Positions 358 through 54,189 of a DNA stretch of 64,000 nt are shown here, one piece after another. The DNA comes from Candidatus Shapirobacteria bacterium. GTDB lineage: Bacteria > Patescibacteriota > Microgenomatia > UBA12405. Both the position numbers and the translations under genes were made by a program. The stretch covers positions 13 to 64,012 of the forward strand of contig JACPHO010000002.1 of assembly GCA_016188545.1 (NCBI GenBank), given 5' to 3'. Each line of letters begins with the position of its first letter. The first letter of the stretch is position 1. The notes beneath the pieces were generated by a model. It was not told the DNA's origin and did no database searches. It saw only the letters and a program-made list of their open reading frames with translations.

Positions 358-429
358 TGCGCCTACCAGGAATCGAACCTGGATCAACGGTTTCGCAAAC
401 CGTCATTCTATCCATTAAACTATGGGCGC
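358..429 (-). tRNA. tRNA-Arg (anticodon GCG)
   Basis: 72 nt cloverleaf on the minus strand. Acceptor GCGCCCA/TAGGCGC (one mismatch). Anticodon stem ACGGU/ACCGU with loop UUGCGAA. T-arm CCAGG-UUCGAUU-CCUGG. No encoded CCA. Confidence 0.75.
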
Positions 430-1281: not shown

Positions 1282-1364
1282 GGAAGGGTGCGGCGAATGG
1301 TAAGCCACGGGTTTGCTAAACCCGCGTCAGAAATGGCATGAGGGTTCGACTCCCTCCCCTTCCG
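1282..1364 (+). tRNA. tRNA-Ser (anticodon GCU), long variable arm
   Basis: Acceptor GGAAGGG/CCCUUCC. D-stem GGC/GCC. Anticodon stem CGGGU/ACCCG with loop UUGCUAA. 16 nt variable arm. T-arm GAGGG-UUCGACU-CCCUC. Confidence 0.8.
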
Positions 1365-4358: not shown

Positions 4359-5771
4359 TTAGACAGTGGTGATTTGAAGGGCATTAGTTAGTCCGGCTTT
4401 TTGCCACTGAGAACCATGGACGACAACAACATTTTCACCTTTTTTAATTAAGCCTTTTTCAACCAATTCTCCGAGGACTTTGTCTGGGGTGGTAAAAAAC
4501 GGTTCGTGATAGTTGGTGACAAATGGGGTAACACCAAAAGAGATGGTTAGTGATTCGGCAACTTTTTTATCTCTAGTGACAGCGATGACCGGGACGCTTT
4601 GGCGATAACGAGAAATAAAACGAACAGTATGTCCGGTTTCAGTAAAGACAATTAGATGGTCGATAGGTGGTTCTATATTTGATTTGGCGATAGATACGGC
4701 TGATTTGGTTATAACTGAGGTGGCGTTATTATCTTGAAAATTAAGTTGTTCGACGGGACGGTTGGACTCGTTCCAGGAAGCGATACGAGTCATGGTCTGC
4801 ACTGTTCGAACTGGATATTTACCACCGGCGGTTTCGGCAGATAGCATGATGGCGTCGGTACCGTCATAAATTGCATTAGCAACATCGGTGGCCTCTGCGC
4901 GGGTAGGACGAGGATTGACAATCATCGATTCCAGCATTTGAGTGGCGGTGATGACTGGCTTGCCGGCGAGGCGACATTTACGGATGATGGTCTCCTGCCA
5001 ATAGGCAAGTTGTTCAATAGCTGTTTCAATACCAAGATCTCCACGGGCGACCATGACTACATCGGTTTCGGCAATTATCTCATCAATATGATTTAGAGCT
5101 ACTTGATTTTCGATCTTGGCGACTATCTGGGCGTCCATCCCCCGCTGCTGCATTTCAAGACGGAGCATGCGAATATCAGCGGCGGTACGGACGAAGGAAA
5201 GACCGACGTAATCGACCTTGTTACGGGCATTTTTCTCAATCTGAGCAATATCATTGTCGATAAGGGATGGGAAATCAATGTCGATACCGGGAAGATTGAC
5301 ACCCTTGCGGTGTTTGATAACCGCATCGTTTTTGACCTTAGTAATGAGATATGTTTCGTGGACAGAGATAATTGAAGTCTCAACAAAACCATCGTCAATG
5401 AAAAGATCATCACCTGGTTTTAGAAGTGAGAAAACTGCGGAATGGGGAATAATGACATCGATATCATCAACAAAGGAGGAACCGATTTTTATCTCCTGAC
5501 CATTTTTGACCTGAACATCGACTTTATCTCGAGTCTCAAGCCGGATTTCCGGACCCTGAAGATCGAGTAGAATACCGATAACAGCACCTTTACTATCGGC
5601 GACTTGCTGGGCTAACTTGATATGTTCATCGTGCCAATCGGGGGTGGAGTGTTTGGTGTTGAATCTGAAAACATTGACACCAGCATCGATGAGTTCGGAC
5701 ATTAAGAGGGTGGTATCAGAAGCGGGGCCGATAGTGGCGACGATTTTGGTTAGTTTAGTTTTTTTGGTCAT
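4359..5771 (-). CDS. pyk: pyruvate kinase
   Basis: MTKKTKLTKIVATIGPASDT..., ...NFSHG-like region, and MVARGDLGIE, all typical of pyruvate kinase. Start trimmed to the internal Met (MTKKTK). Confidence 0.9.
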   Translation of the reverse strand: MTKKTKLTKIVATIGPASDTTLLMSELIDAGVNVFRFNTKHSTPDWHDEHIKLAQQVADSKGAVIGILLDLQGPEIRLETRDKVDVQVKNGQEIKIGSSFVDDIDVIIPHSAVFSLLKPGDDLFIDDGFVETSIISVHETYLITKVKNDAVIKHRKGVNLPGIDIDFPSLIDNDIAQIEKNARNKVDYVGLSFVRTAADIRMLRLEMQQRGMDAQIVAKIENQVALNHIDEIIAETDVVMVARGDLGIETAIEQLAYWQETIIRKCRLAGKPVITATQMLESMIVNPRPTRAEATDVANAIYDGTDAIMLSAETAGGKYPVRTVQTMTRIASWNESNRPVEQLNFQDNNATSVITKSAVSIAKSNIEPPIDHLIVFTETGHTVRFISRYRQSVPVIAVTRDKKVAESLTISFGVTPFVTNYHEPFFTTPDKVLGELVEKGLIKKGENVVVVHGSQWQKAGLTNALQITTV

Positions 5772-5826: not shown

Positions 5827-7284
5827 ATGGTAGAATGGGACATGATTTTGGGTAGGGGCGTAATTTATCGATACAGTAAAGAACCGATCTTTAATGGAGC
5901 GGAATTTTTTGTGGGTAAGGGAGAAAAAGTGGGGTTGGTGGGACAGAACGGCTCGGGTAAATCTACACTATTTAAACTGATAATGGGTGAAGAATACCCA
6001 GATGAGGGGTCGGTCAAGGTTGATGGTACAGTACTGGGGGTACCTCAGGAAGTAAAACACGACGAGCAGATGGAGAAAGCAGCATCGGTTCGGGATTATA
6101 TTGATCCAAAACACCAAAAAGAAGATTATGAACTACGAAGACTACTGGCAAAACTAGAGTTGGGAGAATATGATCTGTCGGATAAACCGGTTAAAATGAG
6201 CGGTGGTCAGAAGACTAAGCTGGCCATAGTGCGGGCGTTAGTCGCCTCCCCTGATGTATTACTTTTGGATGAGCCGACCAACTTTTTGGATACTGCCGGA
6301 AAGCAGTGGGTAATGGATTTTTTGGGTAAATACCCAAAGACACTTCTAATTATTTCCCACGACTTAAATCTTCTGGATAAATCGATTGACAAAATACTGG
6401 AGGTAAATGGTCAGTCAAAAAAACTGGATGAATATAAAGGAAACTATACTGATTACGTCAAGTTGAAAGGTGAAAAAGATGCACTCTTGGTTCGACAAAT
6501 TCATGTCCAGGAACGACATATTGTGCGAATGAAAAAGGGATGGTTAAAAATGTCGCATGTTAAGTCAGAAAAAGGTGTCCGCCAGAAACTACAGTTGGAA
6601 AAGCGTATCGTGGCGATGGAAGAAAGCCTGCCAACCATGCCATCTGAAGCTAAGAAATTCAAAATTAAATTACCAGAACCTTCATGGGTGGGATCAATCC
6701 CCCTGATGATGAGTGGGATTAACAAAGCCTATGGGACTAAAAAAGTACTGACTGGAGTTGATTTTGATATCAAACGGGGTGAGCGAATTGCCCTGGTCGG
6801 GCAAAACGGAGCCGGAAAAAGTACCTTGATCAAAATTATTATGGGGATGCAGGAGGCTGATTCGGGAGAGGTTTATAAAGATGAGAAACTGGTGATCGGA
6901 TACTATTCTCAGGAGTTTGAAACTTTTGATTTTGATAAAACACTTTTGGAGACTATAAAAGATGTGTGTTCGATGCCGGAACAGACCCTACGGGGACATT
7001 TGGGAAGGTTTTTGTTTGGGGCGGATAAAGTCAACCAAAAGGTGAAAACTTTGTCCGGTGGAGAAAAGACAAGACTGGCGATAGCCTTACTTCTGGGACA
7101 GAATTTTAACCTACTGGTACTGGACGAGCCAACAACGTACCTTGATGTACTTTCCCAACGATTAATTCTGGAAGCTTTGAAGGGTTACAGCGGGGCAATG
7201 ATATTGGTGTCACACACACCAGAATTTATTACGGAACTAAAGCCTAATCGCAAATTTTACCTACCGGAAAACCGCTGGGAATAA
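5827..7284 (+). CDS. ABC-F family ATPase (two ABC domains, no TMD)
   Basis: Two Walker A motifs (GQNGSGKST and GQNGAGKST) and two signature motifs (LSGGQKTKLA and LSGGEKTRLA). Start moved to the internal Met to avoid overlapping pyk. Confidence 0.85.
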   Translation: MVEWDMILGRGVIYRYSKEPIFNGAEFFVGKGEKVGLVGQNGSGKSTLFKLIMGEEYPDEGSVKVDGTVLGVPQEVKHDEQMEKAASVRDYIDPKHQKEDYELRRLLAKLELGEYDLSDKPVKMSGGQKTKLAIVRALVASPDVLLLDEPTNFLDTAGKQWVMDFLGKYPKTLLIISHDLNLLDKSIDKILEVNGQSKKLDEYKGNYTDYVKLKGEKDALLVRQIHVQERHIVRMKKGWLKMSHVKSEKGVRQKLQLEKRIVAMEESLPTMPSEAKKFKIKLPEPSWVGSIPLMMSGINKAYGTKKVLTGVDFDIKRGERIALVGQNGAGKSTLIKIIMGMQEADSGEVYKDEKLVIGYYSQEFETFDFDKTLLETIKDVCSMPEQTLRGHLGRFLFGADKVNQKVKTLSGGEKTRLAIALLLGQNFNLLVLDEPTTYLDVLSQRLILEALKGYSGAMILVSHTPEFITELKPNRKFYLPENRWE

Positions 7285-9985: not shown

Positions 9986-10057
9986 GTTCCTGTAGTCCAA
10001 TGGATAAGATGATCCCCTCCGAAGGGATTGATCCGGGTTCGACTCCCGGCGGGAACA
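9986..10057 (+). tRNA. tRNA-Arg (anticodon CCG)
   Basis: Acceptor GUUCCUG/CGGGAAC. Anticodon stem AUCCC/GGGAU with loop CUCCGAA. T-arm CCGGG-UUCGACU-CCCGG. Confidence 0.8.
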
Positions 10058-10786: not shown

Positions 10787-10873
10787 GGAGAGGTCGGATA
10801 GTGGTTCATTCCACAGACCTGGAAAGTCTGCGCCGTAAAAAGCTCGCGGGTTCGAATCCCGCCCTCTCCGCCA
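10787..10873 (+). tRNA. tRNA-Ser (anticodon GGA), CCA encoded
   Basis: Acceptor GGAGAGG/CCUCUCC. Anticodon stem CAGAC/GUCUG with loop CUGGAAA. Long variable arm. T-arm GCGGG-UUCGAAU-CCCGC. 3' GCCA. Confidence 0.8.
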
Positions 10874-42705: not shown

Positions 42706-44640
42706 ATGAATATTAGAAGGATATTGTTGTCGACTCTTGCAATAGTAAGTTTTTTATACATCGGGACGAAGGATTTGTGGGCGGCTAACAGCAAATCTTT
42801 TAAAATTACCTCGGCAAATATTGAGGCCATACTAGATATTGACGGATCCATGGAAGTAAGAGAATCAAGGCAATATAGCTTCAACGGGAGCTACACATTT
42901 GCTTATCAATATATAAATAAACGAGGTGGGAAGGGAATAGAAAACAGGAGAAGCGAAGACTATGAGTTAGATAACTTTTCACTATGCGAGGCAACAACTT
43001 GTTATCGCGGACTCCAGCAGGAGGAAATTAGAGCGGCAGATGATAACCGACCTGAAGGAACGTTTTATGTAATCGAAGAGGCTGATAGATACTATGTTAA
43101 GTGGTTTTACCGGAGTAATAGTGGGGTAAAGAATTTTGAGCTGAGATATCGGGTCGCCAACGCAATTACTCAACAAAAAGATACTGCAGAACTGTATTGG
43201 AAATTGATTGGAGATGGGTGGGAAGTAGCGACGAGTAATATGAATGCGAAAATAAAACTACCTCTAGCGGTCGATGGAAATAAGATTAAGGCTTGGGCAC
43301 ACGGACCAATAGGTGGAGTGGTGTCGATTCCGACAAACAGCCTAGTAACAGCAGCGGTGAATAGATTGCCTACAAAAACATTTTTTGAGATCCGAGTGTT
43401 GATGCCCAAAGAGACTTTTTATAAAGGAGTTAAAGGGACGATAACCACAGGTGAGATAGAGGCACAAGAAAAAAAATACATTGAGGACACAATTGCTGAT
43501 CAGAAAAGGAAAGAGATGGGAGCGCAAGCAGCGGTAGCTGGAGTGGTACTACTGACACTGTGGGCGGTGGTTAGGTTTGTAAGAAGGTTAGGACAATTTT
43601 TGAAAAATGGTTTGGAACTAAAAATGCCTAGAGTGAATCTGGCGGACAGAATTTGGGAACCGCCAAGCAATATTGACCCGGCACAAGTAGAACAGCTACT
43701 AAAAGCGGAAAAGACACTTACTCCGAAATCATTTACGGCGACGATTTTGTCACTAGTGCAACACAGAGTTTACAGGCTAACCAGAAGTGATCAAAAAATA
43801 GGTTTTTTGATATTTAAGAAATATGAATATTATCTGGAAAAACAGGTAAATGAGAAGTATGTACCATCAGGAATTGAACAAAAAACAATTGAATACCTTG
43901 ATAAAGTAGGGACGGGGAAAATTGGACTTTCTGACGTTGTTAAATACGCCAGAACCAGAAGAACAACCAGTTACAACTTCTTTAAATCCTTTGAAAAAAC
44001 GGCGCTAAGAGAGAATCTCGAAGAAGGTTATTTTGACAAGAAAGCTCATTTTTTGGTCAACAATTATGGTGGTGAGGTCGGCAACGGACTGACTTTGTTT
44101 CTAGTATTCATGGCGATACCGTTTACATCTCCGCTGCTAACAAATTCACCATGGTTTTTGATAGCTGAAATAGCATGTGTACCAATAATGGTGGTGATAA
44201 TGGCAATAAGGGGCTACATGAAGAAGTATGGTGAGAAGAGAACTGAGAAAGGGAGTGAAGAGGCAGCAAAATGGATGGCCTTTGAAAAACATATGAGTGA
44301 CTATCGGCAGACCCAAAAGTACCCGATTGATTCGATTGTCCTCTGGGAAAAATATTTGGTATATGGAACAGTGCTGGGAGTATCGATGAAAACGTTGTCA
44401 CAACTACCAGTAAAATTTAGCGCTGAAGACGCCATTTTGGGAACTACTTATTGGGGAGGGGGGCACTTTTCAGGAACCGATGGAGTTTTTGGAGGTGATT
44501 TTGGTTCTTTTTCACAAGCAATGAACTCAATTGCTTCGACTGCGAGTGCCAGTTATGGGGCCAGTGGAACAGGTTCGTCAGGTGGTGCATCGGGTGGAGG
44601 TGGCGGTGGAGGCGGAGGTGGCGGTGGAGGAGCAGGCTAA
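42706..44640 (+). CDS. DUF2207 family membrane protein with a poly-Gly C-terminus
   Basis: Signal peptide, a large extracytoplasmic domain, TM helices, and a C-terminal GGGGGGGGGGGAG tail typical of DUF2207. Confidence 0.6.
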   Translation: MNIRRILLSTLAIVSFLYIGTKDLWAANSKSFKITSANIEAILDIDGSMEVRESRQYSFNGSYTFAYQYINKRGGKGIENRRSEDYELDNFSLCEATTCYRGLQQEEIRAADDNRPEGTFYVIEEADRYYVKWFYRSNSGVKNFELRYRVANAITQQKDTAELYWKLIGDGWEVATSNMNAKIKLPLAVDGNKIKAWAHGPIGGVVSIPTNSLVTAAVNRLPTKTFFEIRVLMPKETFYKGVKGTITTGEIEAQEKKYIEDTIADQKRKEMGAQAAVAGVVLLTLWAVVRFVRRLGQFLKNGLELKMPRVNLADRIWEPPSNIDPAQVEQLLKAEKTLTPKSFTATILSLVQHRVYRLTRSDQKIGFLIFKKYEYYLEKQVNEKYVPSGIEQKTIEYLDKVGTGKIGLSDVVKYARTRRTTSYNFFKSFEKTALRENLEEGYFDKKAHFLVNNYGGEVGNGLTLFLVFMAIPFTSPLLTNSPWFLIAEIACVPIMVVIMAIRGYMKKYGEKRTEKGSEEAAKWMAFEKHMSDYRQTQKYPIDSIVLWEKYLVYGTVLGVSMKTLSQLPVKFSAEDAILGTTYWGGGHFSGTDGVFGGDFGSFSQAMNSIASTASASYGASGTGSSGGASGGGGGGGGGGGGGAG

Positions 44641-44645
44641 AAAAT

Positions 44646-45005
44646 ATGATTAACCTACTTGATATACACCAGAAAAAGATGGAGGTATTCGAGAAAACGG
44701 GTATAGGAAATTGGTGTGATTGGCTGGAAAAGAGAACATGGATACGGCCAAACCATATTACAGTAGTGAACTTGATGGTGGGGTGGGCGGCAACTATGAG
44801 TTTGTTTAATGACGTCGGTCAGACATCAGGACTAATTATACTAATGATGATGCTGGACGGGTTTGATGGATACTACGCGGTGAGAAATAACTTGAAAACA
44901 AAGATGGGTGAGGTATTGGATCATGGGGGGGGATATATGGCGATAGGAGTGGCAATGTTGTTGAAAAGCTATTGGCACTACGGTGAGTGGTGGATAGAAT
45001 ACTGA
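44646..45005 (+). CDS. small membrane protein, CDP-alcohol phosphatidyltransferase-like fragment (uncertain)
   Basis: DGFDGYYAVR...GEVLD partially fits the D-G-x2-A-R...G-x3-D motif. The ORF is only 119 aa. Confidence 0.3.
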   Translation: MINLLDIHQKKMEVFEKTGIGNWCDWLEKRTWIRPNHITVVNLMVGWAATMSLFNDVGQTSGLIILMMMLDGFDGYYAVRNNLKTKMGEVLDHGGGYMAIGVAMLLKSYWHYGEWWIEY

Positions 45006-45186
45006 TACTTAAAAATGGGTGGCAAGAAATTAAATTCCCGGAACGGGATTTTATCTATTTGTACATTTTTGGCTGGTATTGGGAGGGGTTAATAGTCCAA
45101 TTGATATTACAGCCGATGATTTTGGGGTACTTTTTATATAATCGGATGCGTGGTGCTAGAATTAGTAATTAGTTATTTGAAATAAA

Positions 45187-45735
45187 ATGAACAAAAAGTA
45201 TTTGATACTAGCGGCTACCCTACTAATACTGGGCGGATGTACTAAGCAGGGAGTGGTTTCTAATGTGGTTGATAAAGTTGAACAAAAAAAAGAAGAGGCT
45301 AAGAAATCAATTAAGGACCTAGTGGCGTCCGGAGTAAGTCAAAAGTGTTCTTGGAAGTCGGATGTTGATGGTACAACATCAGAAGGACAAATGTGGATAT
45401 CTGGCAAGAAGTTTAAACAAGAAATAACCACAGAATTGGCAGAAACAAATGTTGAAACTAAAGCTACAGTAGTATCCGATGGTAGCTACACATATATGTG
45501 GAACAGCGAAATGGGTAAGAAGGGAATTAAGATGGCCATAAAGGATGATGAAACTCAGGACTATAGTGCTGAAAACGGGAAGGTTGATTGGAACAAAGAG
45601 TTCCAATTTGAATGTAACCCGAGTACAGTCAGCGACAGTGAGTTGGCACCTCCCACCGATGTTGATTTCCAAGACCTGGGGGTGCAACTGGAACAACTCC
45701 AGCAACTACAGGAGAAATACGGGCAAGGCGAGTAA
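45187..45735 (+). CDS. lipoprotein, hypothetical
   Basis: Lipobox LILGGC at the N-terminus. Confidence 0.45.
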   Translation: MNKKYLILAATLLILGGCTKQGVVSNVVDKVEQKKEEAKKSIKDLVASGVSQKCSWKSDVDGTTSEGQMWISGKKFKQEITTELAETNVETKATVVSDGSYTYMWNSEMGKKGIKMAIKDDETQDYSAENGKVDWNKEFQFECNPSTVSDSELAPPTDVDFQDLGVQLEQLQQLQEKYGQGE

Positions 45736-45741
45736 TAAATA

Positions 45742-46320
45742 ATGGACGTTACTAACAGACAGGAAAAGTTGGATAGAGTTATCGGGCAAAGGCGTGAGGG
45801 GGTGATGGTGTTGCAAGATATTCATGACCCACATAATGCGGCTGCTGTGTGGAGGAGCATTGACGCTTTTGGGTGGCAAAAAGTATATTTGATTTTTGAA
45901 CAAGAAGAAGTGTTTAATCCTAAAAAAATGGGACGAGAGTCGTCGGCTTCGGCTAATAAATGGTTGGATTTTAAGGTGTTTAAGTCGACCAGAGAATGCA
46001 TAGAGGAATTACATCGTGAAGGATATGGCCTATGGGCGACAGTGCTTGATAGGGAGGCTAGTGAAATTTATGAGTCAAAATTTGAGGATAAAAAAATTGC
46101 GATAATGTTGGGAAATGAGCATCGGGGGTTAACAGAAGAAGCGGTGAAACTAGCTGATAGGAAGGTGTACATACCAATGAGAGGAATGGTTCAGAGCCTT
46201 AATTTATCGGTAAGTGCAGCGATATGCTTATATGAAGTTGAGAGACAAAGAGAAGAAAGTGACGGGGAGTTTGGACTAAGCGATGTGGAAAAAATAGATC
46301 TGGAAAAAAGGTGGAGATAA
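45742..46320 (+). CDS. SpoU/TrmH-family RNA 2'-O-methyltransferase
   Basis: VLQDIHDPHNAAAVWRSIDAFG..., LGNEHRGL, and SLNLSVSAAICLYE are the SPOUT motifs. Confidence 0.75.
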   Translation: MDVTNRQEKLDRVIGQRREGVMVLQDIHDPHNAAAVWRSIDAFGWQKVYLIFEQEEVFNPKKMGRESSASANKWLDFKVFKSTRECIEELHREGYGLWATVLDREASEIYESKFEDKKIAIMLGNEHRGLTEEAVKLADRKVYIPMRGMVQSLNLSVSAAICLYEVERQREESDGEFGLSDVEKIDLEKRWR

Positions 46321-46321
46321 T

Positions 46322-46948
46322 TCACTTGGCTTTTGAGATGGGGGAGAAGGAAAACCGATGAATGGGACATGGTCCATATTTTTTGATCGCTTCAAGGTGG
46401 GTTTTGGTGCCATAGCCTTTGTGGGCAGAAAAACCATAGTCTGGAAAATCTTTGTCGCACTGATCCATTTGTTGATCCCGGTCGACTTTGGCGACAATAG
46501 AGGCACTGGCAATGCTAAAACATTTTTGGTCACCTTTAATTATTGATTGCGTGTTAATAAGTTTATTAACATTATAGTTGCCATCAATAAGGCAATAATC
46601 AAAATTAGTACGATAGAACTTTAGAGCTTTGGTAATTAAAGAATAGATACAAATAGCTATCCCCTGTTTGTCTATTTCGACTGAGGTAGAAGAAAAAGTT
46701 GTAAATCGGTGACCTGAATTAAGAAAATGTTCGTGGATTTTTTGGCGTTTTTGAGCAGAAAGTAATTTGGAATCACGAACCCCAAGATTGATGAATTCCT
46801 GAGGATCAAATGTATGAAGATCAAGCAGAAAGGCACCGATGGTTACCGATCCAGCAAAAGGTCCCCTACCAACCTCATCGATACCTAGCAGATAGCGACA
46901 GTCAGATGGAAGTTGTGATTTTTCAAACTTAAAATCAGGAAGATTCAC
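46322..46948 (-). CDS. rnhB: ribonuclease HII
   Basis: LLGIDEVGRGPFAGSVTIGA and downstream RNase HII catalytic motifs. Confidence 0.85.
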   Translation of the reverse strand: MNLPDFKFEKSQLPSDCRYLLGIDEVGRGPFAGSVTIGAFLLDLHTFDPQEFINLGVRDSKLLSAQKRQKIHEHFLNSGHRFTTFSSTSVEIDKQGIAICIYSLITKALKFYRTNFDYCLIDGNYNVNKLINTQSIIKGDQKCFSIASASIVAKVDRDQQMDQCDKDFPDYGFSAHKGYGTKTHLEAIKKYGPCPIHRFSFSPISKAK

Positions 46949-47004
46949 GAGTAGAATTAATTAGTTATTAATTCAAATTATATATGGCGGTTACTAAGAC
47001 TGGA

Positions 47005-47037
47005 GCCCGCCGTCGCCATGCTACGGCGGGTAAATCG
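47005..47037. repeat. CCCGCC...GGCGGG hairpin repeat with a gtaaatcgg tail
   Basis: cccgccgtcgccatgctacggcgggtaaatcgg. Related to the elements at 10664-10730, 56886-56927 and 60836-60896. Confidence 0.6.
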
Positions 47038-47089
47038 GTGGTGGAACACTAGTTTGCTGTGGAAAAGAGATGGTACTTAAGGCAGAATA

Positions 47090-47138
47090 GTTGTTTCGCC
47101 CGAAGGCTCATCAGGTCCGATAGATTTCGGACTACAAC
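47090..47138 (-). ncRNA. hammerhead ribozyme, type III (stems I and II closed, stem III open)
   Basis: Minus strand reads GUUGUA|GUCCGA-aaucua-UCGGAC-CUGAUGA-GCC-uucg-GGC-GAAA-CAAC. All core nucleotides are present (CUGAUGA, GAAA, U16.1-A15.1, H17=A). Stem I is 6 bp, stem II 3 bp with a UUCG loop, stem III 5 bp. Confidence 0.65.
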
Positions 47139-47336
47139 ATCTTCTAGGCTCGCGAATGGGGTCAGGCTGCTGCCTGACCCCAGAAGTTTCGCGATACCCA
47201 GAAGGGAATTCAAGGTATATATAAAGCCATACATTTATAACAACTCCGAGTCGGTTTTTTATGTCCACAAGCACTGAGGCTGGACTAGATGGGAGTCGGG
47301 AATGTTCCCCTATGGCGTTGTGGGGAATAGGATAAA

Positions 47337-48098
47337 TTACTTGGCTTCGGAAGTGCCCATGTACTTGGCAACCAAGTCAGAAGCGGAAGGTGTTTCGACT
47401 TCTGTGCCCAAAGCGCGGAGCTTGGCATCTGCACGACGGCGAGCGATCTTGAGATTCGCTTCATCTTCGTAAGTCTTTGCTTCGGCTTCTGCGTTCTGAA
47501 GAATCTCTTCAGCCTTCTGCTGATTGCGCTGACTGCCAGCTTCATCGAGATCGGCGATGATACGGTAGATTTCCTTGCCGGAAGAAGCACTGGCAGCGCG
47601 AGAACGGGCTTCTGCGAGCTTGGACTTGCGGACCTTGATCTCAGTGTCGAGGGCGTCAATGTCAATATCGAGTTTCTTGACACGAGCGTCGGCAGCCTCA
47701 TAACGAGTCCGAATTTCAGCCGAGTCTTCCTGAGCAGTCTGCATCTTTTCAACAGCTTCCTTCACGGATGCTTCGTCACCCAACTTACCGGCACGTTTTG
47801 CGGCGCGGTCCATGGTGGAGATTTCGTCATCGAAGGGTTTCAACTGTTCAAGAGCGAGATTGCGGGCGGTTTTCAGCTCAAGCAGATGGGTTTCCGATCT
47901 GGACTTGGCGAGTTCTGCCGCTGCAACTGCTGCTTCTTGACGGGCGACAGCGGAGTCGAGCTTGCGGATGACGACACTGCGCATGTGAAAAAGACGGACG
48001 CGAATGACATCAGCGAGGGCATCCGGGCTGGCAAAAAGCCAAATGACGAACAGGGCAGCGAGAATGATCTGGACGGTGGGATTCATTAGGTATTGCAT
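47337..48098 (-). CDS. membrane-anchored coiled-coil protein, PspA/IM30-like (or ATP-synthase-b-like); first gene-end of the GC-rich operon
   Basis: N-terminal hydrophobic helix, then ~220 aa of heptad-rich Ala/Glu/Arg/Lys sequence. GC content is clearly higher than the surrounding sequence. Confidence 0.45.
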   Translation of the reverse strand: MQYLMNPTVQIILAALFVIWLFASPDALADVIRVRLFHMRSVVIRKLDSAVARQEAAVAAAELAKSRSETHLLELKTARNLALEQLKPFDDEISTMDRAAKRAGKLGDEASVKEAVEKMQTAQEDSAEIRTRYEAADARVKKLDIDIDALDTEIKVRKSKLAEARSRAASASSGKEIYRIIADLDEAGSQRNQQKAEEILQNAEAEAKTYEDEANLKIARRRADAKLRALGTEVETPSASDLVAKYMGTSEAK

Positions 48099-48170
48099 TT
48101 TTTCATCTCCAAAAGTTAGTTTATTTGACGATATGACATTACGACACAGAGAACTGTTTTGTTGACCTCC

Positions 48171-48788
48171 TTATGATCCGACTCTGAGAATGATGGCAAC
48201 CGCGACGAACTTGACGACGGCAACCAAGATGGCATGCGAGTCATTGTCCTTTTCAACCATCCATTCATTGAACTTGTCGAGACTGCGGATGCCTGAAAGA
48301 TAGGCAATGATGAAGGTGATGATGTCACCAATCATCTCGCCGACGGCGCCGCGAGTCAGGACAGCAAAGATGAACATGTCGGGGGTTGAGGCATCTAACA
48401 CCGTAGCAACTTGCCAGCCGGAAAGCAAAATCCCCGCGAGAATGATCACGTGGGAATTGTTGCGTGCGGCATCGAGCTGACCACGAAGTGTAATGGCACC
48501 CCTTCGGTTCCAGGGCCAGCGAAGCAGCGGGGTATCCATGACATGTTCGAAAGAGATGAAAGTCATGATCAACACATAAGCGACGAAGACCCCACCGCGA
48601 ACCTTGAGACCAATGAGAAATCCTTTGGTCAGGAACGCGAAGAGATCATTGATGGACTGTCCGCTGGGAGCGAAAAAGTACAAACCAGCAGCGAATGCAA
48701 GCGAAAGCAACACAAACTTGAGAAGTAGGTATGCCTTGCCGGAAATTCCGTTTTGTTCCATGGTTTCTCCAAACTTATGCCATAGCAC
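48171..48788 (-). CDS. polytopic membrane protein, hypothetical (GC-rich island)
   Basis: 205 aa with four or more hydrophobic segments. Confidence 0.4.
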   Translation of the reverse strand: MLWHKFGETMEQNGISGKAYLLLKFVLLSLAFAAGLYFFAPSGQSINDLFAFLTKGFLIGLKVRGGVFVAYVLIMTFISFEHVMDTPLLRWPWNRRGAITLRGQLDAARNNSHVIILAGILLSGWQVATVLDASTPDMFIFAVLTRGAVGEMIGDIITFIIAYLSGIRSLDKFNEWMVEKDNDSHAILVAVVKFVAVAIILRVGS

Positions 48789-49554
48789 GGGTCATTTCGC
48801 CAATGAATGGGTCAATCGACTCGCCTAGATAGACTCCTTCGGTCCAGAGATAATCTGTGCCGCTGAAGTGGTTGGTGAATAAGACAGTATTCCCTTGTGG
48901 ATCTTCACCCAAAAGGTACTTGACTTTCATGGCATCTGGGGAGGGTAATGTGCCACCGCGAGTCTCGACTTCAAAGTAGCCGACGTCGACCACAGTGATA
49001 TCAATTCCCAGAGTTTTGAAAGTATAGCTTCGTGCTTCCTGATCGTATGGCGGATGGCTGAATACCTCACCGGCTTTGTTGAAATCTTCGCCTCCTTGCG
49101 GGGAAACGGAGACACGCTTCTTTAGCGTAAAGCCGTAGTAGCCTTCCGGTCGGTGAATGATCATGGTGCCGTTATCAAAAACACGGACAGACCACTCTTC
49201 ACCACGACGGGAATAAATTTGGGTATTGGGGCGGCGATTGAGCCCGTGGAAAATTCCAAACGCGGAGAGAGTCACTTCGATCTTTCGACCTGACTCGCGA
49301 AGCGCAAGTTCCACCATTTCGCCAACACGCAAATCTTCAAAACGATCATTTGCCGGAGCTTCTGCGGGCACACGCTGGTCTTTTAGATCATCACGAAGAT
49401 TTTCCAGTTCTTGTGTTGATTTTGTAGCCGAGCGTATGAATGTCTGCAGGGTATCACGGAAGTTCCGTATTCGTGCAGGATTGGTCAGCAGGAATCCAAT
49501 TCCAATGATGATCAACCCGACGACTCCAGAACCAATACAAAGATTTCCTGACAT
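48775..49554 (-). CDS. membrane-anchored hypothetical protein (GC-rich island)
   Basis: N-terminal TM helix, a short coiled coil, then a ~180 aa globular domain. Confidence 0.4.
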   Translation of the reverse strand: MSGNLCIGSGVVGLIIIGIGFLLTNPARIRNFRDTLQTFIRSATKSTQELENLRDDLKDQRVPAEAPANDRFEDLRVGEMVELALRESGRKIEVTLSAFGIFHGLNRRPNTQIYSRRGEEWSVRVFDNGTMIIHRPEGYYGFTLKKRVSVSPQGGEDFNKAGEVFSHPPYDQEARSYTFKTLGIDITVVDVGYFEVETRGGTLPSPDAMKVKYLLGEDPQGNTVLFTNHFSGTDYLWTEGVYLGESIDPFIGEMTRAMA

Positions 49555-49566
49555 ATTGTTCCTCTC

Positions 49567-50760
49567 TTAGAATCCATCACCAGAATCTTGTGAATCACTT
49601 CCTCCAAAACCATCACCAGAATCTTGTGAATCGTATCCACCGAAGCCATCGTCCGAACTACCGCAACAATCACTTCCACTGTCAGACGAACCGCTATCAC
49701 CTCCATACGACGGTGATCCAGTCGAACTGGTGTCATCATCAGGAGGATCATATGGAACGGCTGTGGGTGGAGGCTCTTGGGCGTCGTCGTAACTCTGGTT
49801 GGCGTAGCTAGTGCAATTTGAAACATGCGTACTGACGCTCGAGAAATCCTGAGCGTAGCAAGCATTGAGCGCAAGCTGTTTTTCGGTCACAGCACTGTCG
49901 TAGTTACTTTGCGCTCCGTACGAATCATAGGCACCTATTAATTCTCCACCTGCTCGGGTTATGGACGCTTGACAGCTAGCAATCTCTAGAGGAGCATTGT
50001 CAGCTTCAGATGATAGATTGTCCGCTGTTGAAGACGCGTTTTGGGCGGTAATACTTGCCTGTTGCGCTTGATCATAAACGAGCGGCTTATCCACAACTCC
50101 TTCAGGGAGGGTGGTTCGGAATGTTACTTTGGCGACATTGTCGAGTTGACTTTGCGCTTGGGTTAGATACGTCATTGCGGAGGCATAAGACAAGGTTCCT
50201 TGACCGCAGAGGCTTTTTGTTGGCATTGCTGCAACGTAGAGAGTCTCTGTATCGATCACTTTCTGAACCTCGCCAATGTACCCACGATCCACAGCCTCAG
50301 ATTTTGCTTGAAGTTGTGAATAATATGACGGTGGACCCAAAATCTGGACTATGATCTGTTCGGCATTTCTTAACTTGATGTCGGCTTCTTCCCAATAGTA
50401 GCGGGCAGAGTCACGATCATCACTATCAAGAGAGCTTTGGGCTTGGGCTTGCAACGCCTGAACAGAACCTTGAAGATTTGACCTCGCTGTGGACAGCTGA
50501 GTATCAAAACCTTCACTCCAATGCCTGGCGTACTTTGGCGACTGCTCGATAAATTCCTTTTCAGCGCTGGGTAGCTGAACGTCTAGTGAGACTCTGCGGG
50601 TTTCGAGTTCGGCGATTTTTGCCGTTAGATCCCGAAGCTCTGCAGCGTCAAAGGCGTTCATAATTAAACCTGACGCGATTAAGAACAAACAGAACAGAGC
50701 GCTGTACAACCAGACACGGTCGTCAACTAGAGGTTGACTTCGTGCTAAGTTGTTTCGCAT
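49567..50760 (-). CDS. membrane-anchored coiled-coil protein with an acidic Ser/Asp/Gly-rich repetitive C-terminus (GC-rich island)
   Basis: N-terminal TM helix. Coiled coil. C-terminal (DSQDSGDGFGG)x2, encoded by a ~36 bp tandem DNA repeat at 49571-49640. Confidence 0.4.
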   Translation of the reverse strand: MRNNLARSQPLVDDRVWLYSALFCLFLIASGLIMNAFDAAELRDLTAKIAELETRRVSLDVQLPSAEKEFIEQSPKYARHWSEGFDTQLSTARSNLQGSVQALQAQAQSSLDSDDRDSARYYWEEADIKLRNAEQIIVQILGPPSYYSQLQAKSEAVDRGYIGEVQKVIDTETLYVAAMPTKSLCGQGTLSYASAMTYLTQAQSQLDNVAKVTFRTTLPEGVVDKPLVYDQAQQASITAQNASSTADNLSSEADNAPLEIASCQASITRAGGELIGAYDSYGAQSNYDSAVTEKQLALNACYAQDFSSVSTHVSNCTSYANQSYDDAQEPPPTAVPYDPPDDDTSSTGSPSYGGDSGSSDSGSDCCGSSDDGFGGYDSQDSGDGFGGSDSQDSGDGF

Positions 50761-50860
50761 ACCTTTCCTTCCTTTCAGATTTATTTTCTTACTTACGATT
50801 TATCGGTAGCACCTCCTGATGCATGGTTTGGTTTTTTTATTTCAACTACTACAAATATTG

Positions 50861-50985
50861 CTGTAGTGCGCTCAAAGCCGAAAATGGTTTCGACACTGGG
50901 TGCACTACAGCGATGTAGACTATATATATACACTTGAATTGTTAAGGTACTGTAAATATGCAAAAAACACACGCGATTGTGTGTT
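50861..50985. promoter_or_regulatory. divergent control region with two inverted repeats (candidate operators)
   Basis: ctgtagtgc-N32-gcactacag at 50861-50910 and aacacac-gcgatt-gtgtgtt at 50966-50985. The region lies between the minus-strand GC-rich operon and the plus-strand pepF-like gene. Confidence 0.4.
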
Positions 50986-51082
50986 TATTGAATTATTTAC
51001 GTTGGCGGATTATAGGATAAGCTACGTTAAAAGTCAACATTATGGGGTATGTTTTATGCTCAAAGATAAGTTACAATAAGAC

Positions 51083-52852
51083 ATGGCTAAAAATGGAGCA
51101 GAAAACTGGAACTTAAGCGAACTTGGAAAAGTGGCCGATTATGACAAATTACTGGCAGAAATAGATTCAAATATTGAAAAAGTAGAAAAATGGTGGAAGA
51201 AACTAAACCCTAAAATGAGCAAGGAGGAGTTTGCTGAATTCATGGAATACGACGAACTTCTCGACGATAAATTCTCCAGACTGATGTACCTACCGGAACT
51301 GATGGAATCGACTAACCAAAAGGATAGTCAGGCTCGTCTCATGAAGAGCAAGGCAAGTGACTTGGCTTTGAAATTTAATAAAACTAGCCGAAAGATAGGG
51401 CATTGGCTGAAGGGACTTGAGGTAGAAAACAAAGAAAAACTGGACGATGAAAACGCTAGAAGATTATTTTCGGCCATACCTGATTTGGAATATGGACTTA
51501 ACTACGGCAGATTGGCGGCGAAATATACCCTCCCCCAGAATGAAGAAGAAATCATCGATAATAAAGATGTAAATGGAATGGGGGCGGTGAGTGACCTTCG
51601 AGGACTGATTGAAGCTGATTTGGTCTACGATATGGACGGAAAAAAGATAAAAAACCAGGCTGATTTGTTGAAATATGTCCATGATGCTAATCCAAAAAAG
51701 CGCGAATCTGCATACAGAGCTTTATTCAAGGAACATCTTAAAAACATTGACAAGTTTTTTGTAATCTATCAGTCAGTAGTCAAAGATTGGGGATACGAAG
51801 CAAAGCTAAGAGGTTATAACTCGGCTATTGAAGTTAGAAACTTTGGTAATCATGTGCCAAACGAAGCCATTGAAACCCTACTACGAGTATGTAAAGAAGA
51901 GAGAAAGGTATTTTGGAGGTATTTTGAAACTAAGGCAAAACTTCTAAAAAAGAAGAAACTTAGCCGGTTTGATGTGTACGCGCCAATAGGTCTAAAATCA
52001 GGCAAAAAAATAAAATATACGGAAGCAAAGGAACTGGTACTAAAAAGTTTTGCGACCTTTTCAAAAAAATTTGCCGATATGGCTGCTAAGGTAATAAATG
52101 AAAACCATATTGATTCTCATCCCAAAACAAACAAACGTAGCGGTGCATTTTGCGCCACAGTCAACCCAAAACTAACCCCTTATGTACTTCTAAATTACAC
52201 TGATAGCCAGAGAGATGTGTCAACACTGGCTCACGAGTTGGGACATGCAGTTCATAGCTTGTATGCTAATCATCACTATTCTTCATCACAGCACGCAAAT
52301 TTACCATTGTCCGAAACAGCTTCGACTTTTGGCGAGCTAGTACTTTTTGAATATATGTTGGCGGGCGAGAAGGATAAGGGTGTCAAAAAACAAATGTTAT
52401 CCGAGAAAATTGGGGATTCATACGCAACAATTCTCCGGCAAAACTATTTTGTAATGTTTGAGCTAAAGGCTCATGAAATGATCAGTAAAGGCACGACCGC
52501 TGAAGAATTGTGCAAGACATATTGGGAAAATCTTAAAGAACAATTTGGACCTTCAGTAAAACTAGATAAGGTCTTCCGATATGAGTGGCTTTATATTAGT
52601 CACATATTTGAATCACCGTTCTATTGTTATGCTTACAACTTTGGTGAACTACTTTCATTGTCTTTGTACGCCAGATATAAAAAGGAAGGTGGGAAGTTTG
52701 CTAGCAAAATTGAAAATGTATTAGCAGATGGTGGATCAAGAGCTCCAGAAAAAGTGCTGGCTGATGTAGGGGTGGATATGAGTGATGAGAATTTTTGGAG
52801 AGGTGGGTTCGAATTGATTCGGGGTTGGCAAAACCAGCTTGAAGGGTTATAA
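51083..52852 (+). CDS. pepF: oligoendopeptidase F (M3B family)
   Basis: HELGHAVH zinc motif and length and architecture typical of PepF. Confidence 0.8.
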   Translation: MAKNGAENWNLSELGKVADYDKLLAEIDSNIEKVEKWWKKLNPKMSKEEFAEFMEYDELLDDKFSRLMYLPELMESTNQKDSQARLMKSKASDLALKFNKTSRKIGHWLKGLEVENKEKLDDENARRLFSAIPDLEYGLNYGRLAAKYTLPQNEEEIIDNKDVNGMGAVSDLRGLIEADLVYDMDGKKIKNQADLLKYVHDANPKKRESAYRALFKEHLKNIDKFFVIYQSVVKDWGYEAKLRGYNSAIEVRNFGNHVPNEAIETLLRVCKEERKVFWRYFETKAKLLKKKKLSRFDVYAPIGLKSGKKIKYTEAKELVLKSFATFSKKFADMAAKVINENHIDSHPKTNKRSGAFCATVNPKLTPYVLLNYTDSQRDVSTLAHELGHAVHSLYANHHYSSSQHANLPLSETASTFGELVLFEYMLAGEKDKGVKKQMLSEKIGDSYATILRQNYFVMFELKAHEMISKGTTAEELCKTYWENLKEQFGPSVKLDKVFRYEWLYISHIFESPFYCYAYNFGELLSLSLYARYKKEGGKFASKIENVLADGGSRAPEKVLADVGVDMSDENFWRGGFELIRGWQNQLEGL

Positions 52853-52873
52853 TAATACTACGACAGCTGTAGT

Positions 52874-53470
52874 ATGAGTATGAGAAAAATAACAAAAAAC
52901 AGTGGCCGTGAAATCATAAGATATAAAAAAGGCCAAAGAATAGTCTCTTTGGGAGACAGCGTTAACTTTATAGCATCTGTTAAATCAGGAGAGGTTAAGC
53001 TATATAAACCATTTGAAGGTCGAGATATTTGTATCCCAAACATGAGGATGTTTAAGGAATGGAGTCAGATGATGGTTTTGACTGGAGAAAAAAGCGATTA
53101 TATGGTTGAGGCAATGGGAATTGTCGAGCTAGAAAAAACCCCGAAAGATAAATTTCTAAAAGAAATCAAGGCTAATTCCCGGAAACAGATGGAGACTTTG
53201 ACTGAGTTTTCAAAACTTTTCTTGAAACAAACGAGAAGATATGTAAATATTACCGGTGCGAGTGCAATCGGGAAGGTAGCAACTGTCATCTTAGATATGT
53301 CTGGAGAGGGATATCCCCTAACTCATAAATTAGTGGCGAGTTTGACCGGTTTGACGCGAGAAACGGTAACTTTACAAATGCTTAAAATGGAAAAAATGAA
53401 ACTAATTGATAATGCGAATAGAAAGATAAAGATATTGAATAGAAAAGGTTTGGAAAAATTTTTGGTATAG
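52874..53470 (+). CDS. Crp/Fnr-family transcriptional regulator
   Basis: cNMP-binding beta-roll plus a C-terminal HTH (LTHKLVASLTGLTRETVTLQMLKME). Confidence 0.7.
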   Translation: MSMRKITKNSGREIIRYKKGQRIVSLGDSVNFIASVKSGEVKLYKPFEGRDICIPNMRMFKEWSQMMVLTGEKSDYMVEAMGIVELEKTPKDKFLKEIKANSRKQMETLTEFSKLFLKQTRRYVNITGASAIGKVATVILDMSGEGYPLTHKLVASLTGLTRETVTLQMLKMEKMKLIDNANRKIKILNRKGLEKFLV

Positions 53471-53475
53471 TAGGT

Positions 53476-54189
53476 ATGATGATTCCAGAAGAAACAATAA
53501 GCCTATTCGAGAGATTGGTGAATGATGCTAGAGAAAAAGCGAAGGATGAACATATTTTGGAGATGATCCAATGGAAGGTTGACCATACTTGGCGAGTGGT
53601 GGAAACGGGTAAAGAAATACTGGAAGGTGAAAAAGGCCAAGACTGGGATGTAGGTCGAGCAATGGGAGCTTTTTTACTTCACGATGTCGGTAGATTTGAG
53701 CAAGCACTTTTAGGAAGCTATTCTGACAAGCAGACTGGAGTGAGCCACGCGTTTTTGGGGGCGGAGATGCTAGTAAAGGCTGGGTACAAAGATAATGAAA
53801 TCATCGAAGCTGTACATGACCATAGTTTGGCGGTCTACGAGGGTTCAAATGTATACACTAAACTTATAAAAGATGCCGATCAACTGACAATTATTGGAGA
53901 AGAATACCTACTAGAGAAACACCCAGAGCAAAAAATAGCCTCAGAAGAAGTAATAAAAACCATCGAGAGAGGGGTCAAACTTGACACCTCAATCAGCGTC
54001 GGACAAATAGACCATTTGTTGTCTTATTGGAATTGGAAGAAGTTTTTATATTTCAGCACCAGTAAAGAGATATTTAGGAATCGGAAATATGATGAGATGC
54101 TATTGGGCAAACTAAGGTTATTTGACAAAAGTGGCAAGACTGAAGAGTGGCTTAGAAAAAGTACTGATTTACTCGCGACAACAGTCTAG
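53476..54189 (+). CDS. HD-domain phosphohydrolase
   Basis: H...LLHDVGR (HD motif) and a downstream His/Asp pattern. Confidence 0.6.
   Translation: MMIPEETISLFERLVNDAREKAKDEHILEMIQWKVDHTWRVVETGKEILEGEKGQDWDVGRAMGAFLLHDVGRFEQALLGSYSDKQTGVSHAFLGAEMLVKAGYKDNEIIEAVHDHSLAVYEGSNVYTKLIKDADQLTIIGEEYLLEKHPEQKIASEEVIKTIERGVKLDTSISVGQIDHLLSYWNWKKFLYFSTSKEIFRNRKYDEMLLGKLRLFDKSGKTEEWLRKSTDLLATTV

Follow-up and report, generated by a model that had tools for sequence, protein, structure and literature searches.

What does a hammerhead ribozyme do at the end of a GC-rich gene cluster in a bacterium of the candidate phyla radiation (CPR)? The question is raised by a 64,000-nucleotide (nt) stretch of a Candidatus Shapirobacteria contig (JACPHO010000002.1; "the window" below means this whole stretch), in which the minus strand of positions 47090 to 47138 carries a type III hammerhead between a GC-rich operon and rnhB, the gene for RNase HII. 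An earlier sequence-only reading of the window had suggested that the ribozyme cuts a polycistronic transcript, separating the operon from rnhB, and that the GC-rich DNA is of phage or mobile origin. We find that the ribozyme and a stable hairpin directly upstream of it form the 3' end of an inserted cassette that has its own promoter. On balance we think it probable that this hairpin-hammerhead module uses its ribozyme to form the 3' end of a self-contained transcription unit and to insulate that unit, and is not a device for releasing rnhB mRNA.

Hundreds of hammerheads have been described in bacteria, often flanking prophage genes and active on ~2-kb polycistronic transcripts in vitro; those that flank genes were proposed to cut long transcripts into defined mRNAs (PMC3088659, 2011). 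Thousands of genomic hammerheads are now known, and their function in bacteria is still called unresolved (PMC6765202). The literature that we searched yielded no paper linking hammerheads with Patescibacteria.

Results

A type III hammerhead with conserved core and covarying stems

Read on the minus strand from 47138 to 47090, the element is GUUGUA|GUCCGA-AAUCUA-UCGGAC-CUGAUGA-GCC-UUCG-GGC-GAAA-CAAC, a complete type III hammerhead in which the bar marks the scissile bond between A17 (47133) and G1.1 (47132). Direct reading of the DNA reproduced exactly the sequence, core and three helices (6, 3 and 5 bp) that the sequence-only reading had reported. The parts are as follows.

47090..47138, minus strand: type III hammerhead ribozyme (descriptor search, ortholog comparison, covariation, leave-one-out model)
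47138..47134 (5' strand) and 47093..47090 (3' strand), minus strand: stem III, 5 bp, open
47132..47127 and 47120..47115, minus strand: stem I, 6 bp, with a 6-nt loop at 47126..47121
47107..47105 (GCC), 47104..47101 (UUCG) and 47100..47098 (GGC), minus strand: stem II, 3 bp, C(UUCG)G
47097..47094, minus strand: GAAA segment

The 5' strand of the core, C3-A9, reads CUGAUGA (47114..47108) and is unchanged in all 12 aligned relatives, and the 3' strand, G12-A13-A14, reads GAA (47097..47095). A15.1 (47094) pairs with U16.1 (47134), and the cleavage-site nucleotide N17 is A (47133), not G. Every stem pair is Watson-Crick, including the core-adjacent pairs G10.1-C11.1, G1.1-C2.1 and A15.1-U16.1, which agrees with the acceptance rule that a hammerhead has no mispair at 10.1-11.1, 1.1-2.1 or 15.1-16.1 (Perreault et al. 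2011, PMC3088659). Judged by sequence and structure, the site has every feature that defines type III and falls short only of Rfam's curated score. A type III descriptor that we wrote ourselves matched once in the window, both strands considered, and the match is this site. In 2000 random 64-kb sequences, simulated to match the dinucleotide statistics of the window, chance produced 0.05 matches per window with the loose descriptor and 0.002 with stems of at least 6/3/5 bp.

The sequence-only reading had proposed a scan with the Rfam Hammerhead_3 model (RF00008) as a check, taking a score below threshold as refutation. The site aligns to that model end to end with 24.8 bits (E = 0.0044 when 401 nt are scanned and 0.11 for 10 kb), short of the gathering score, which is 48.5, and in that formal sense the scan went against the motif. 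The gathering score is a curation cut-off, not a biological criterion, and an unfair test here: it is not a valid refutation because clear orthologs and other complete bacterial type III hammerheads also fall below 48.5, at 26.8-44.4 bits (the ortholog on contig L002 at 35.6), and none of those found here reaches it. When a covariance model was trained on 12 relatives, the window being left out, it gave the site 59.0 bits (E ~1e-16, a rough value), with a runner-up of 10.1 bits in the 64 kb, and found no hammerhead in loci that lack the GC-rich island. At the gathering threshold, Rfam calls only four tRNA genes in the whole window, at 358-429 (minus), 1282-1364 (plus), 9986-10057 (plus) and 10787-10870 (plus), and a permissive Rfam scan of 44000-54000 revealed no second ribozyme in or near the island.

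An identical locus is present on Logan contig L001. The last gene before the hammerhead, which is weakly PspA-like, has three diverged homologs; the closest homolog contig, L002 (80% protein identity), has this ribozyme too, its stem I being GUCCGG/CCGGAC and its stem II GCUC-AUUA-GAGC. Contexts of RNase HII homologs yielded two further orthologs, one on L023/L024 (stem I GUCCGGU-GUC-ACCGGAC, stem II GCC-UUCG-GGC) and one on L027 (stem I GUCCGG-UAUCCA-CCGGAC, stem II GCUCU-11 nt-AGAGC). Across these four distinct versions (window, L002, L023 and L027) the core bases and stem III (GUUGUA...ACAAC) are invariant. The innermost pair of stem I is A-U in the window and G-C in the other three; stem II ranges from GCC/GGC (window, L023) through GCUC/GAGC (L002) to GCUCU/AGAGC (L027), with compensatory changes from C-G to U-A and added pairs; and the loops vary in both sequence and length. 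An invariant core with covarying stems is, in an alignment of this kind, the signature of selection on the hammerhead fold.

Pattern scans of metagenome and genome collections extended the family to further complete type III hammerheads in Levyibacteriota (L009), a Patescibacteria-group metagenome-assembled genome (MAG; L012), Saccharibacteria (L013), a Microgenomates MAG (L014), two low-GC MAGs labelled Gammaproteobacteria (L015 and L016) and two metagenome contigs (L006 and L008). Six of the 12 pattern matches in genomes (L010, L011 and L017-L020) were set aside as chance: they lack stem III and come from high-GC genomes, and ~15 chance matches were estimated. A scan of viral contigs with the hammerhead pattern returned zero matches.

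The ribozyme belongs to an inserted island, not to rnhB

The region ~47000-50800 has ~50% GC, against 38-40% for the genome. Around its downstream edge the following features matter.

46322..46948, minus strand: rnhB (RNase HII; Pfam PF01351, E=1e-33), a host gene and not part of the element
46984..47090, plus strand: frameshifted remnant of a Desulfoferrodoxin-N-like gene (44 aa in L021 and L025), convergent with the cassette
~47087/47086 (47086..47089): right cassette/host junction, from alignment of the empty site in L021 with L023 and L027

In L021, whose rnhB is 84% identical to that of the window, and in L025/L026 (79%), the order is peptidase M3, a 17-nt spacer, the 44-aa gene (preceding M3) and then rnhB, with no island and no hammerhead; rnhB there diverges from the 44-aa Desulfoferrodoxin-N-like gene across 37 nt. 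This comparison identifies the ~4 kb GC-rich island (~47087-51069) as inserted DNA. The ribozyme is its final element and belongs to it and not to rnhB, because both island and ribozyme are missing from the relatives whose rnhB is closest to that of the window. Past stem III only 2-3 nt intervene before host sequence begins again (...CGAAACAACUA(U/C) | UC(U/A)G...), and the left junction, at ~51069/51070, reads ...GTCTTATTGTAAC | TTATCTTTGAGC on the minus strand, directly after ...GTCTTATTGTA(A/G)C. The TAG stop of the remnant (47088-47090) overlaps the last hammerhead base, a CTA at the right junction supplying the new stop. A GC-rich stretch that ends at a hammerhead and gives way to AT-rich host DNA recurs in L006, L008, L015 and L016, and in L016 a near-consensus promoter stands at the start of the GC-rich gene.

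These sites bear directly on the alternative that we take most seriously, in which the ribozyme serves rnhB by processing an operon-rnhB polycistronic transcript into an rnhB mRNA with a defined 5' end. The sequence-only reading was right that the ribozyme lies between the operon and rnhB on the same strand as both. The two are not directly adjacent: the opposite-strand remnant (46984-47090) and 141 nt separate ribozyme from rnhB in the window. The same strand and order recur in L002, where rnhB starts ~38 nt past the ribozyme, and a co-directional gene lies shortly past it in L008, L015 and L016, with an ATG ~4 nt after stem III in the last. However, the rnhB genes of the closest relatives have the same immediate upstream sequence without island or ribozyme, this sequence being conserved in relatives with and without the insertion; the module also follows unrelated cargo in L023, where another gene stands between it and rnhB; and the next downstream gene is convergent in L027, L014 and L006. 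Because of that convergence, and because rnhB at island-less sites has no ribozyme, a dedicated role in rnhB expression is unlikely. Cleavage would still detach read-through RNA from the operon, as the sequence-only reading had it; this separation is a consequence of cleavage and not a conserved purpose, given the ribozyme-free rnhB of relatives and the convergent genes in L027 and L014.

Two small features adjoin this boundary. A GC-rich hairpin insert (CCCGCCG...CGGCGGG) lies at 47006-47030 within the remnant, with similar inserts at the same place in L023 (32 nt) and L027 and none at island-less sites; it may have been inserted separately and move together with the cassette, or it may act in pausing or termination ~60 nt past the ribozyme. 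An extra 199-aa gene adjoins rnhB in L023 and L029.

A stable hairpin is coupled to the ribozyme

Immediately upstream of the hammerhead, the cassette transcript would contain two conserved segments.

47141..47204, minus strand: 64-nt extended three-part hairpin, ending 2 nt before stem III
47214..47336, minus strand: conserved 3' untranslated region (UTR), from the stop codon of the PspA-like gene to the extended hairpin (alignments)

The helices of the extended hairpin are P1 (CUUCUGGGU/GCCUAGAAG), P2 (UCGCGAA/UUCGCGA) and P3 (UGGGGUCAGGC-AGCA-GCCUGACCCCA). Hairpin and hammerhead together (141 nt) fold at -63.2 kcal/mol (z=-7.8), and the 80 nt upstream of the window's hammerhead alone at -47.0 kcal/mol (z=-8.6). 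The hairpin is conserved in L002, L023 and L027, and L014 has one with the same three-part architecture; in L005 the apical helix, P3, has been rebuilt with a different yet complementary pair of strands (GGGUGGGGC/GCCCCACCC). An RNAalifold consensus of five relatives recovers the upstream hairpin together with all three hammerhead helices. Most independent examples in the family also have stable structure next to stem III on its 5' side: across 12 hammerheads, the 80 nt upstream of stem III have a mean z of -5.1 relative to shuffles, as compared with -0.8 for the 80 nt downstream (paired Wilcoxon p=0.0024), and eight of these hammerheads have a very stable structure that ends 0-4 nt from stem III. 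Between the window and L023 the 3' module of hairpin plus hammerhead is 92% identical, and the host genes 73-80%. The window contains no other copy of either end module of the cassette.

The UTR at 47214..47336 is kept in the PspA-type cassettes (window, L002, L027 and L005) and absent from the L023 cassette. Within it, a small hairpin (UUCCCC-11 nt-GGGGAA; 47327..47305, minus strand) directly follows the stop codon of the PspA-like gene, shifts compensatorily in L005 and is missing from the L023 cassette. An AT box (GTATGGCUUUAUAUAUACC / GUAUGGCUUUAUAUAUACC; 47232..47214, minus strand) has the same distribution, conserved in the PspA-type cassettes and absent from that of L023.

The AT box invites a second alternative, that hairpin and hammerhead are a small-RNA gene, with the box as promoter (47240..47214), a 3' end made by cleavage and a product of ~80 nt consisting mostly of the extended hairpin. 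Conservation of a TTGNTA...TATATA-like box ~10 nt upstream of the hairpin in window, L002, L027 and L005 is what such a gene would show, as is a hairpin more conserved than the neighbouring genes. A scan of the cassette 3' UTR for the sigma-70 consensus, however, called no promoter, the AT box itself failing it; in L023 the box is absent and the hairpin stands 7 nt past a stop codon with the module intact; and no Rfam family matches. An intergenic promoter at this position, whether for rnhB or for a small RNA, was rejected on the failed scan and the missing box in L023, and we keep the small-RNA gene as a minor rival of low probability.

Shared ends around exchangeable cargo

The remainder of the cassette consists of its promoter module and four genes.

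50905..51069, minus strand: cassette 5' module, promoter plus short hairpin, shared with L023
47337..50760, minus strand: cargo, four ORFan (orphan open reading frame) genes of ~50% GC (open reading frames, profile searches)
50760..49567, minus strand: 397-aa protein with an N-terminal transmembrane helix and an acidic/Ser-Gly repeat tail
49554..48775, minus strand: 259-aa protein
48788..48171, minus strand: 205-aa multi-pass membrane protein
48098..47337, minus strand: 253-aa coiled-coil protein, weakly PspA/IM30-like

A near-consensus promoter, TTGACT-17-TATAAT at 51037..51009 (minus strand), precedes the cargo genes, and the hammerhead lies downstream of them in sense orientation, as the sequence-only reading had stated. 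The ~165-nt 5' module is ~89% identical to that of L023 by our own count of the alignment; beyond it the cargo diverges completely. At the same site L023 carries one unrelated 478-aa gene, whose product is apparently a secreted protein or lipoprotein, with hairpin and hammerhead beginning 7 nt past its stop, so that two cassettes with different contents share both the 5' promoter module and the hairpin-hammerhead end. Together with the empty sites, this exchange of cargo bears out the earlier suggestion that the GC-rich island is mobile or foreign DNA.

The four cargo proteins have no meaningful match in PHROGs, PADLOC or NCBIfam (a match to the JetC coiled coil, E=0.006, was dismissed as a coiled-coil artefact), PHROGs has no match for three analogous cassette proteins either, and Pfam gave no phage domains; in these searches the island showed no structural, replication or integrase genes of a phage. 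Homologs of the cargo occur at 55-80% identity on L002-L005. The PspA-like family is rare, with four proteins in 5.8 billion, and a genome scan guided by its alignment gave 293 pattern matches and zero relatives.

No terminator-like site was found between the last cassette gene and rnhB, nor in the L023 cassette. The extended hairpin is followed by AUGUUGUAGUCC and not by U residues, and thus does not have the form of an intrinsic terminator.

A palindrome at the end of an exchangeable cassette could also act on DNA. The third alternative holds that the terminal imperfect palindrome, with or without the hammerhead, is a recombination site of the attC or transposon-end kind, the ribozyme being incidental or linked to mobility. 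The palindrome lies exactly at the cassette 3' end, both ends and one hotspot are common to cassettes of different content, presence of the island does not track rnhB relatedness, and conservation is higher in the end modules than in host genes. Yet neither an integrase nor a transposase turned up in the island or beside it: Pfam found no recombinase domain in nine neighbouring proteins (integrases were not looked for in the remainder of the window), and searches for flanking direct repeats, target-site duplications or a matching structure at the island's 5' end gave nothing convincing, only short chance-level repeats and (TA)n tracts. Strict conservation of the core and covariation of the stems make sense only for RNA, the G-U wobble pairs of P1 and P3 fall on the sense strand, and homologous recombination in the M3 and rnhB genes on either side would be enough to account for exchange. 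We regard a DNA-level site as quite improbable.

Several details of the cassette and its site stand apart from these questions. In the leader, a hairpin with a U-run (AAACACAC-AAUCGC-GUGUGUUU; 50993..50958, minus strand) follows the promoter; it resembles a terminator or attenuator and is conserved in L023 despite unrelated cargo. A 27-nt inverted repeat (78% complementary, 4-nt spacer) at 50857-50914 lies in the ~250-nt 5' UTR of the 397-aa gene, in a part of the leader not shared with L023. At 49571-49642, in the part of the gene for the low-complexity C-terminal tail of the 397-aa protein, two tandem 36-nt repeats (83% identical) specify a repeated unit rich in Asp, Ser and Gly. In Shapirobacteria the gap that separates peptidase M3 from the small gene is a hotspot for cargo, holding by lineage a 478-aa secreted protein, a TPM-phosphatase with LemA, or an IMPDH/NMO-like gene.

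L023, 4556-5992 and 6396-6995: genes at and near the hotspot
L028, 5944-6852: hotspot cargo
Contig of P0013 (protein record only): hotspot cargo

Discussion

The observations show a conserved, covarying motif that lies at the terminus of an inserted island, is coupled to a hairpin and has no canonical terminator beside it. On them we base a proposed mechanism. RNA synthesis begun at the cassette promoter (51037..51009) would extend across the four genes, with no intrinsic terminator to stop the polymerase. Once 47138..47090 had been transcribed, the RNA would fold and cut itself after GUA, between 47133 and 47132; from conservation and structure we consider self-cleavage likely. The 5' product would be a cassette mRNA ending in the stable 64-nt hairpin and an 8-nt tail, AUGUUGUA, with a 2',3'-cyclic phosphate, an end that, on general knowledge of RNA decay, should resist 3' exonucleases. 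The 3' product would have a 5'-OH and consist of uncoupled read-through RNA, antisense to the small gene and sense to rnhB, which by analogy with glmS would probably be degraded. The module would thus stand in for a terminator and insulate the foreign cargo from its host neighbours. That cleavage has these stabilizing and insulating consequences we hold, by analogy, to be somewhat more probable than the opposite.

A number of observations weigh against this proposal. The subthreshold Rfam score is one, and the thermodynamics of the window copy are another: nearest-neighbour folding puts the hammerhead at -14.3 kcal/mol and the minimum free energy at -15.0, a gap of 0.7 in favour of a competing fold that pairs GUCCGAA with UUCGGGC, and the hammerhead helices make up only ~6% of the predicted ensemble, as opposed to 42% for the L002 ortholog. 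We considered this competing fold as a conserved switch and rejected it, the pairing being possible in L023 and impossible in L002 and L027. With 3 bp and a UUCG loop, stem II is minimal. Fast hammerhead cleavage at physiological Mg2+ needs a tertiary contact between loops I and II, and inspection of the window (AAUCUA/UUCG), L023 ((U)GUC(A)/UUCG), L002 (UGUCCA/AUUA) and L027 (UAUCCA/11 nt) disclosed no conserved complementarity between them. Covariation supports the fold, in that among the 12 aligned bacterial type III hammerheads 87.7% of cells are paired as against 31-46% in slid controls, and 14 pairs change on both sides; this evidence is partly circular for outer stem I and stem III, since some of the sequences were retrieved by a pattern in which the outer pairs of stem I were fixed, and only those with a stem III were kept. 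The GC-rich hairpin at 47030..47006, ~60 nt downstream, might itself add to termination, and L028 holds other cargo at the same hotspot without any hammerhead. Finally, cleavage is predicted from established hammerhead chemistry, and hairpin protection and the fate of the 5'-OH product are extrapolated to CPR bacteria from the behaviour of 3' hairpins in bacterial mRNA decay and from the glmS/RNase J precedent.

That the motif is a chance match or a decayed, inactive relic, as its sub-threshold Rfam score, minimal stem II and competing fold might suggest, together with the chance motifs to be expected when many windows are scanned (0.002-0.05 per window), is very improbable and effectively excluded by the comparative sequence data, in which four orthologs, from lineages with host genes 72-83% identical, have all core bases intact and compensatory changes in the stems, the family model scores 59 bits and L023 retains the 3-bp/UUCG stem II.

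The hairpin-hammerhead module has parallels in several known systems. With the hammerheads of bacteria and prophages (Perreault et al. 2011, RF00008) the ribozyme of the window shares the core, three helices, type III topology, intergenic placement in sense orientation and residence in horizontally acquired DNA, and its relatives in L009, L012 and L013 show paired ribozymes flanking one or two genes. It differs in its CPR host (Shapirobacteria/Microgenomates), in the lack of phage or integrase genes nearby, in having a single ribozyme at the very end of a promoter-bearing cassette, in the conserved extended hairpin 2 nt upstream, in its minimal UUCG stem II and in a score well below the gathering threshold.

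Phage "morons" are self-standing units of promoter, gene and terminator, inserted among host genes from which they deviate in base composition. The cassette resembles them in its own near-consensus promoter, its 50% GC against 38-40%, its position between formerly adjacent genes and cargo that varies at one site; it differs in a 3' boundary made of hairpin and ribozyme in place of a factor-independent terminator, and in a chromosomal CPR context with no recognizable prophage. Self-cleavage of glmS yields 5'-OH downstream fragments that are substrates of RNase J in Gram-positive bacteria, and engineered insulators that combine a hammerhead with a hairpin, such as RiboJ, shield genes from transcriptional context. 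The predicted 5'-OH downstream fragment, uncoupled from upstream sequence, is common to these and to the window module, whereas the latter has no ligand control and places its hairpin upstream of the ribozyme, where it would stay on the 5' product. With integron attC sites the cassette has in common a ~60-nt imperfect palindrome at the 3' end of an exchangeable gene cassette. Integron cassettes go with an adjacent IntI-type tyrosine recombinase, an attI site and conserved R/L boxes in attC; here no IntI was seen among the nine neighbouring proteins and no attI site was noticed, the cassette has its own promoter, and core conservation and sense-strand G-U pairs point to a function in RNA.

The wider family shows other arrangements. 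In L009, L012 and L013, two type III hammerheads on the same strand flank one or two genes in GC-rich stretches, the prophage arrangement described in 2011, here in CPR genomes (Levyibacteriota, Patescibacteria-group and Saccharibacteria MAGs).

L009, oriented 6733-6807 and 7157-7226: paired hammerheads
L012, oriented 2400-2474 and 5192-5259: paired hammerheads
L013, 4019-4085 and 4884-4939: paired hammerheads

A glycosyltransferase-like gene starts ~4-10 nt past stem III in L016 (5217-5290) and L015 (oriented ~4955-5015); after cleavage the ribozyme body would be the entire 5' UTR there, with no room for a Shine-Dalgarno sequence. Contig L007 (Ga0127502_10575752) was rejected as a relative and is a viroid-like, ribozyme-bearing RNA replicon with hairpin ribozymes: it combines a type III hammerhead with two Hairpin-meta1 matches of 54.6 and 42.2 bits, both above the gathering score (positions 1-64, 449-515 and 752-809).

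The ribozyme class is well known. What appears to be new, on few loci, is its occurrence in CPR bacteria, its tight coupling to an upstream hairpin and its placement right at the 3' end of GC-rich cassettes that are exchangeable and carry a promoter. The Rfam Hammerhead_3 threshold misses this whole group of CPR type III hammerheads, and genome annotations consequently under-count them. A wider reading, which we rate as less likely than not, is that across CPR/Patescibacteria a portable unit of stable hairpin and type III hammerhead marks the 3' end of exchangeable, promoter-bearing GC-rich cassettes for surface and membrane proteins. The locus is a clean natural experiment, with empty and filled sites, the same module on unrelated cargo, a protective-looking hairpin and no canonical terminator, which makes a ribozyme role as 3'-end former and insulator directly testable. 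If the wider reading is true, bacterial hammerheads would gain a concrete, testable role, and the cassettes would represent an undescribed architecture in which the ribozyme module possibly also plays a part in cassette exchange.

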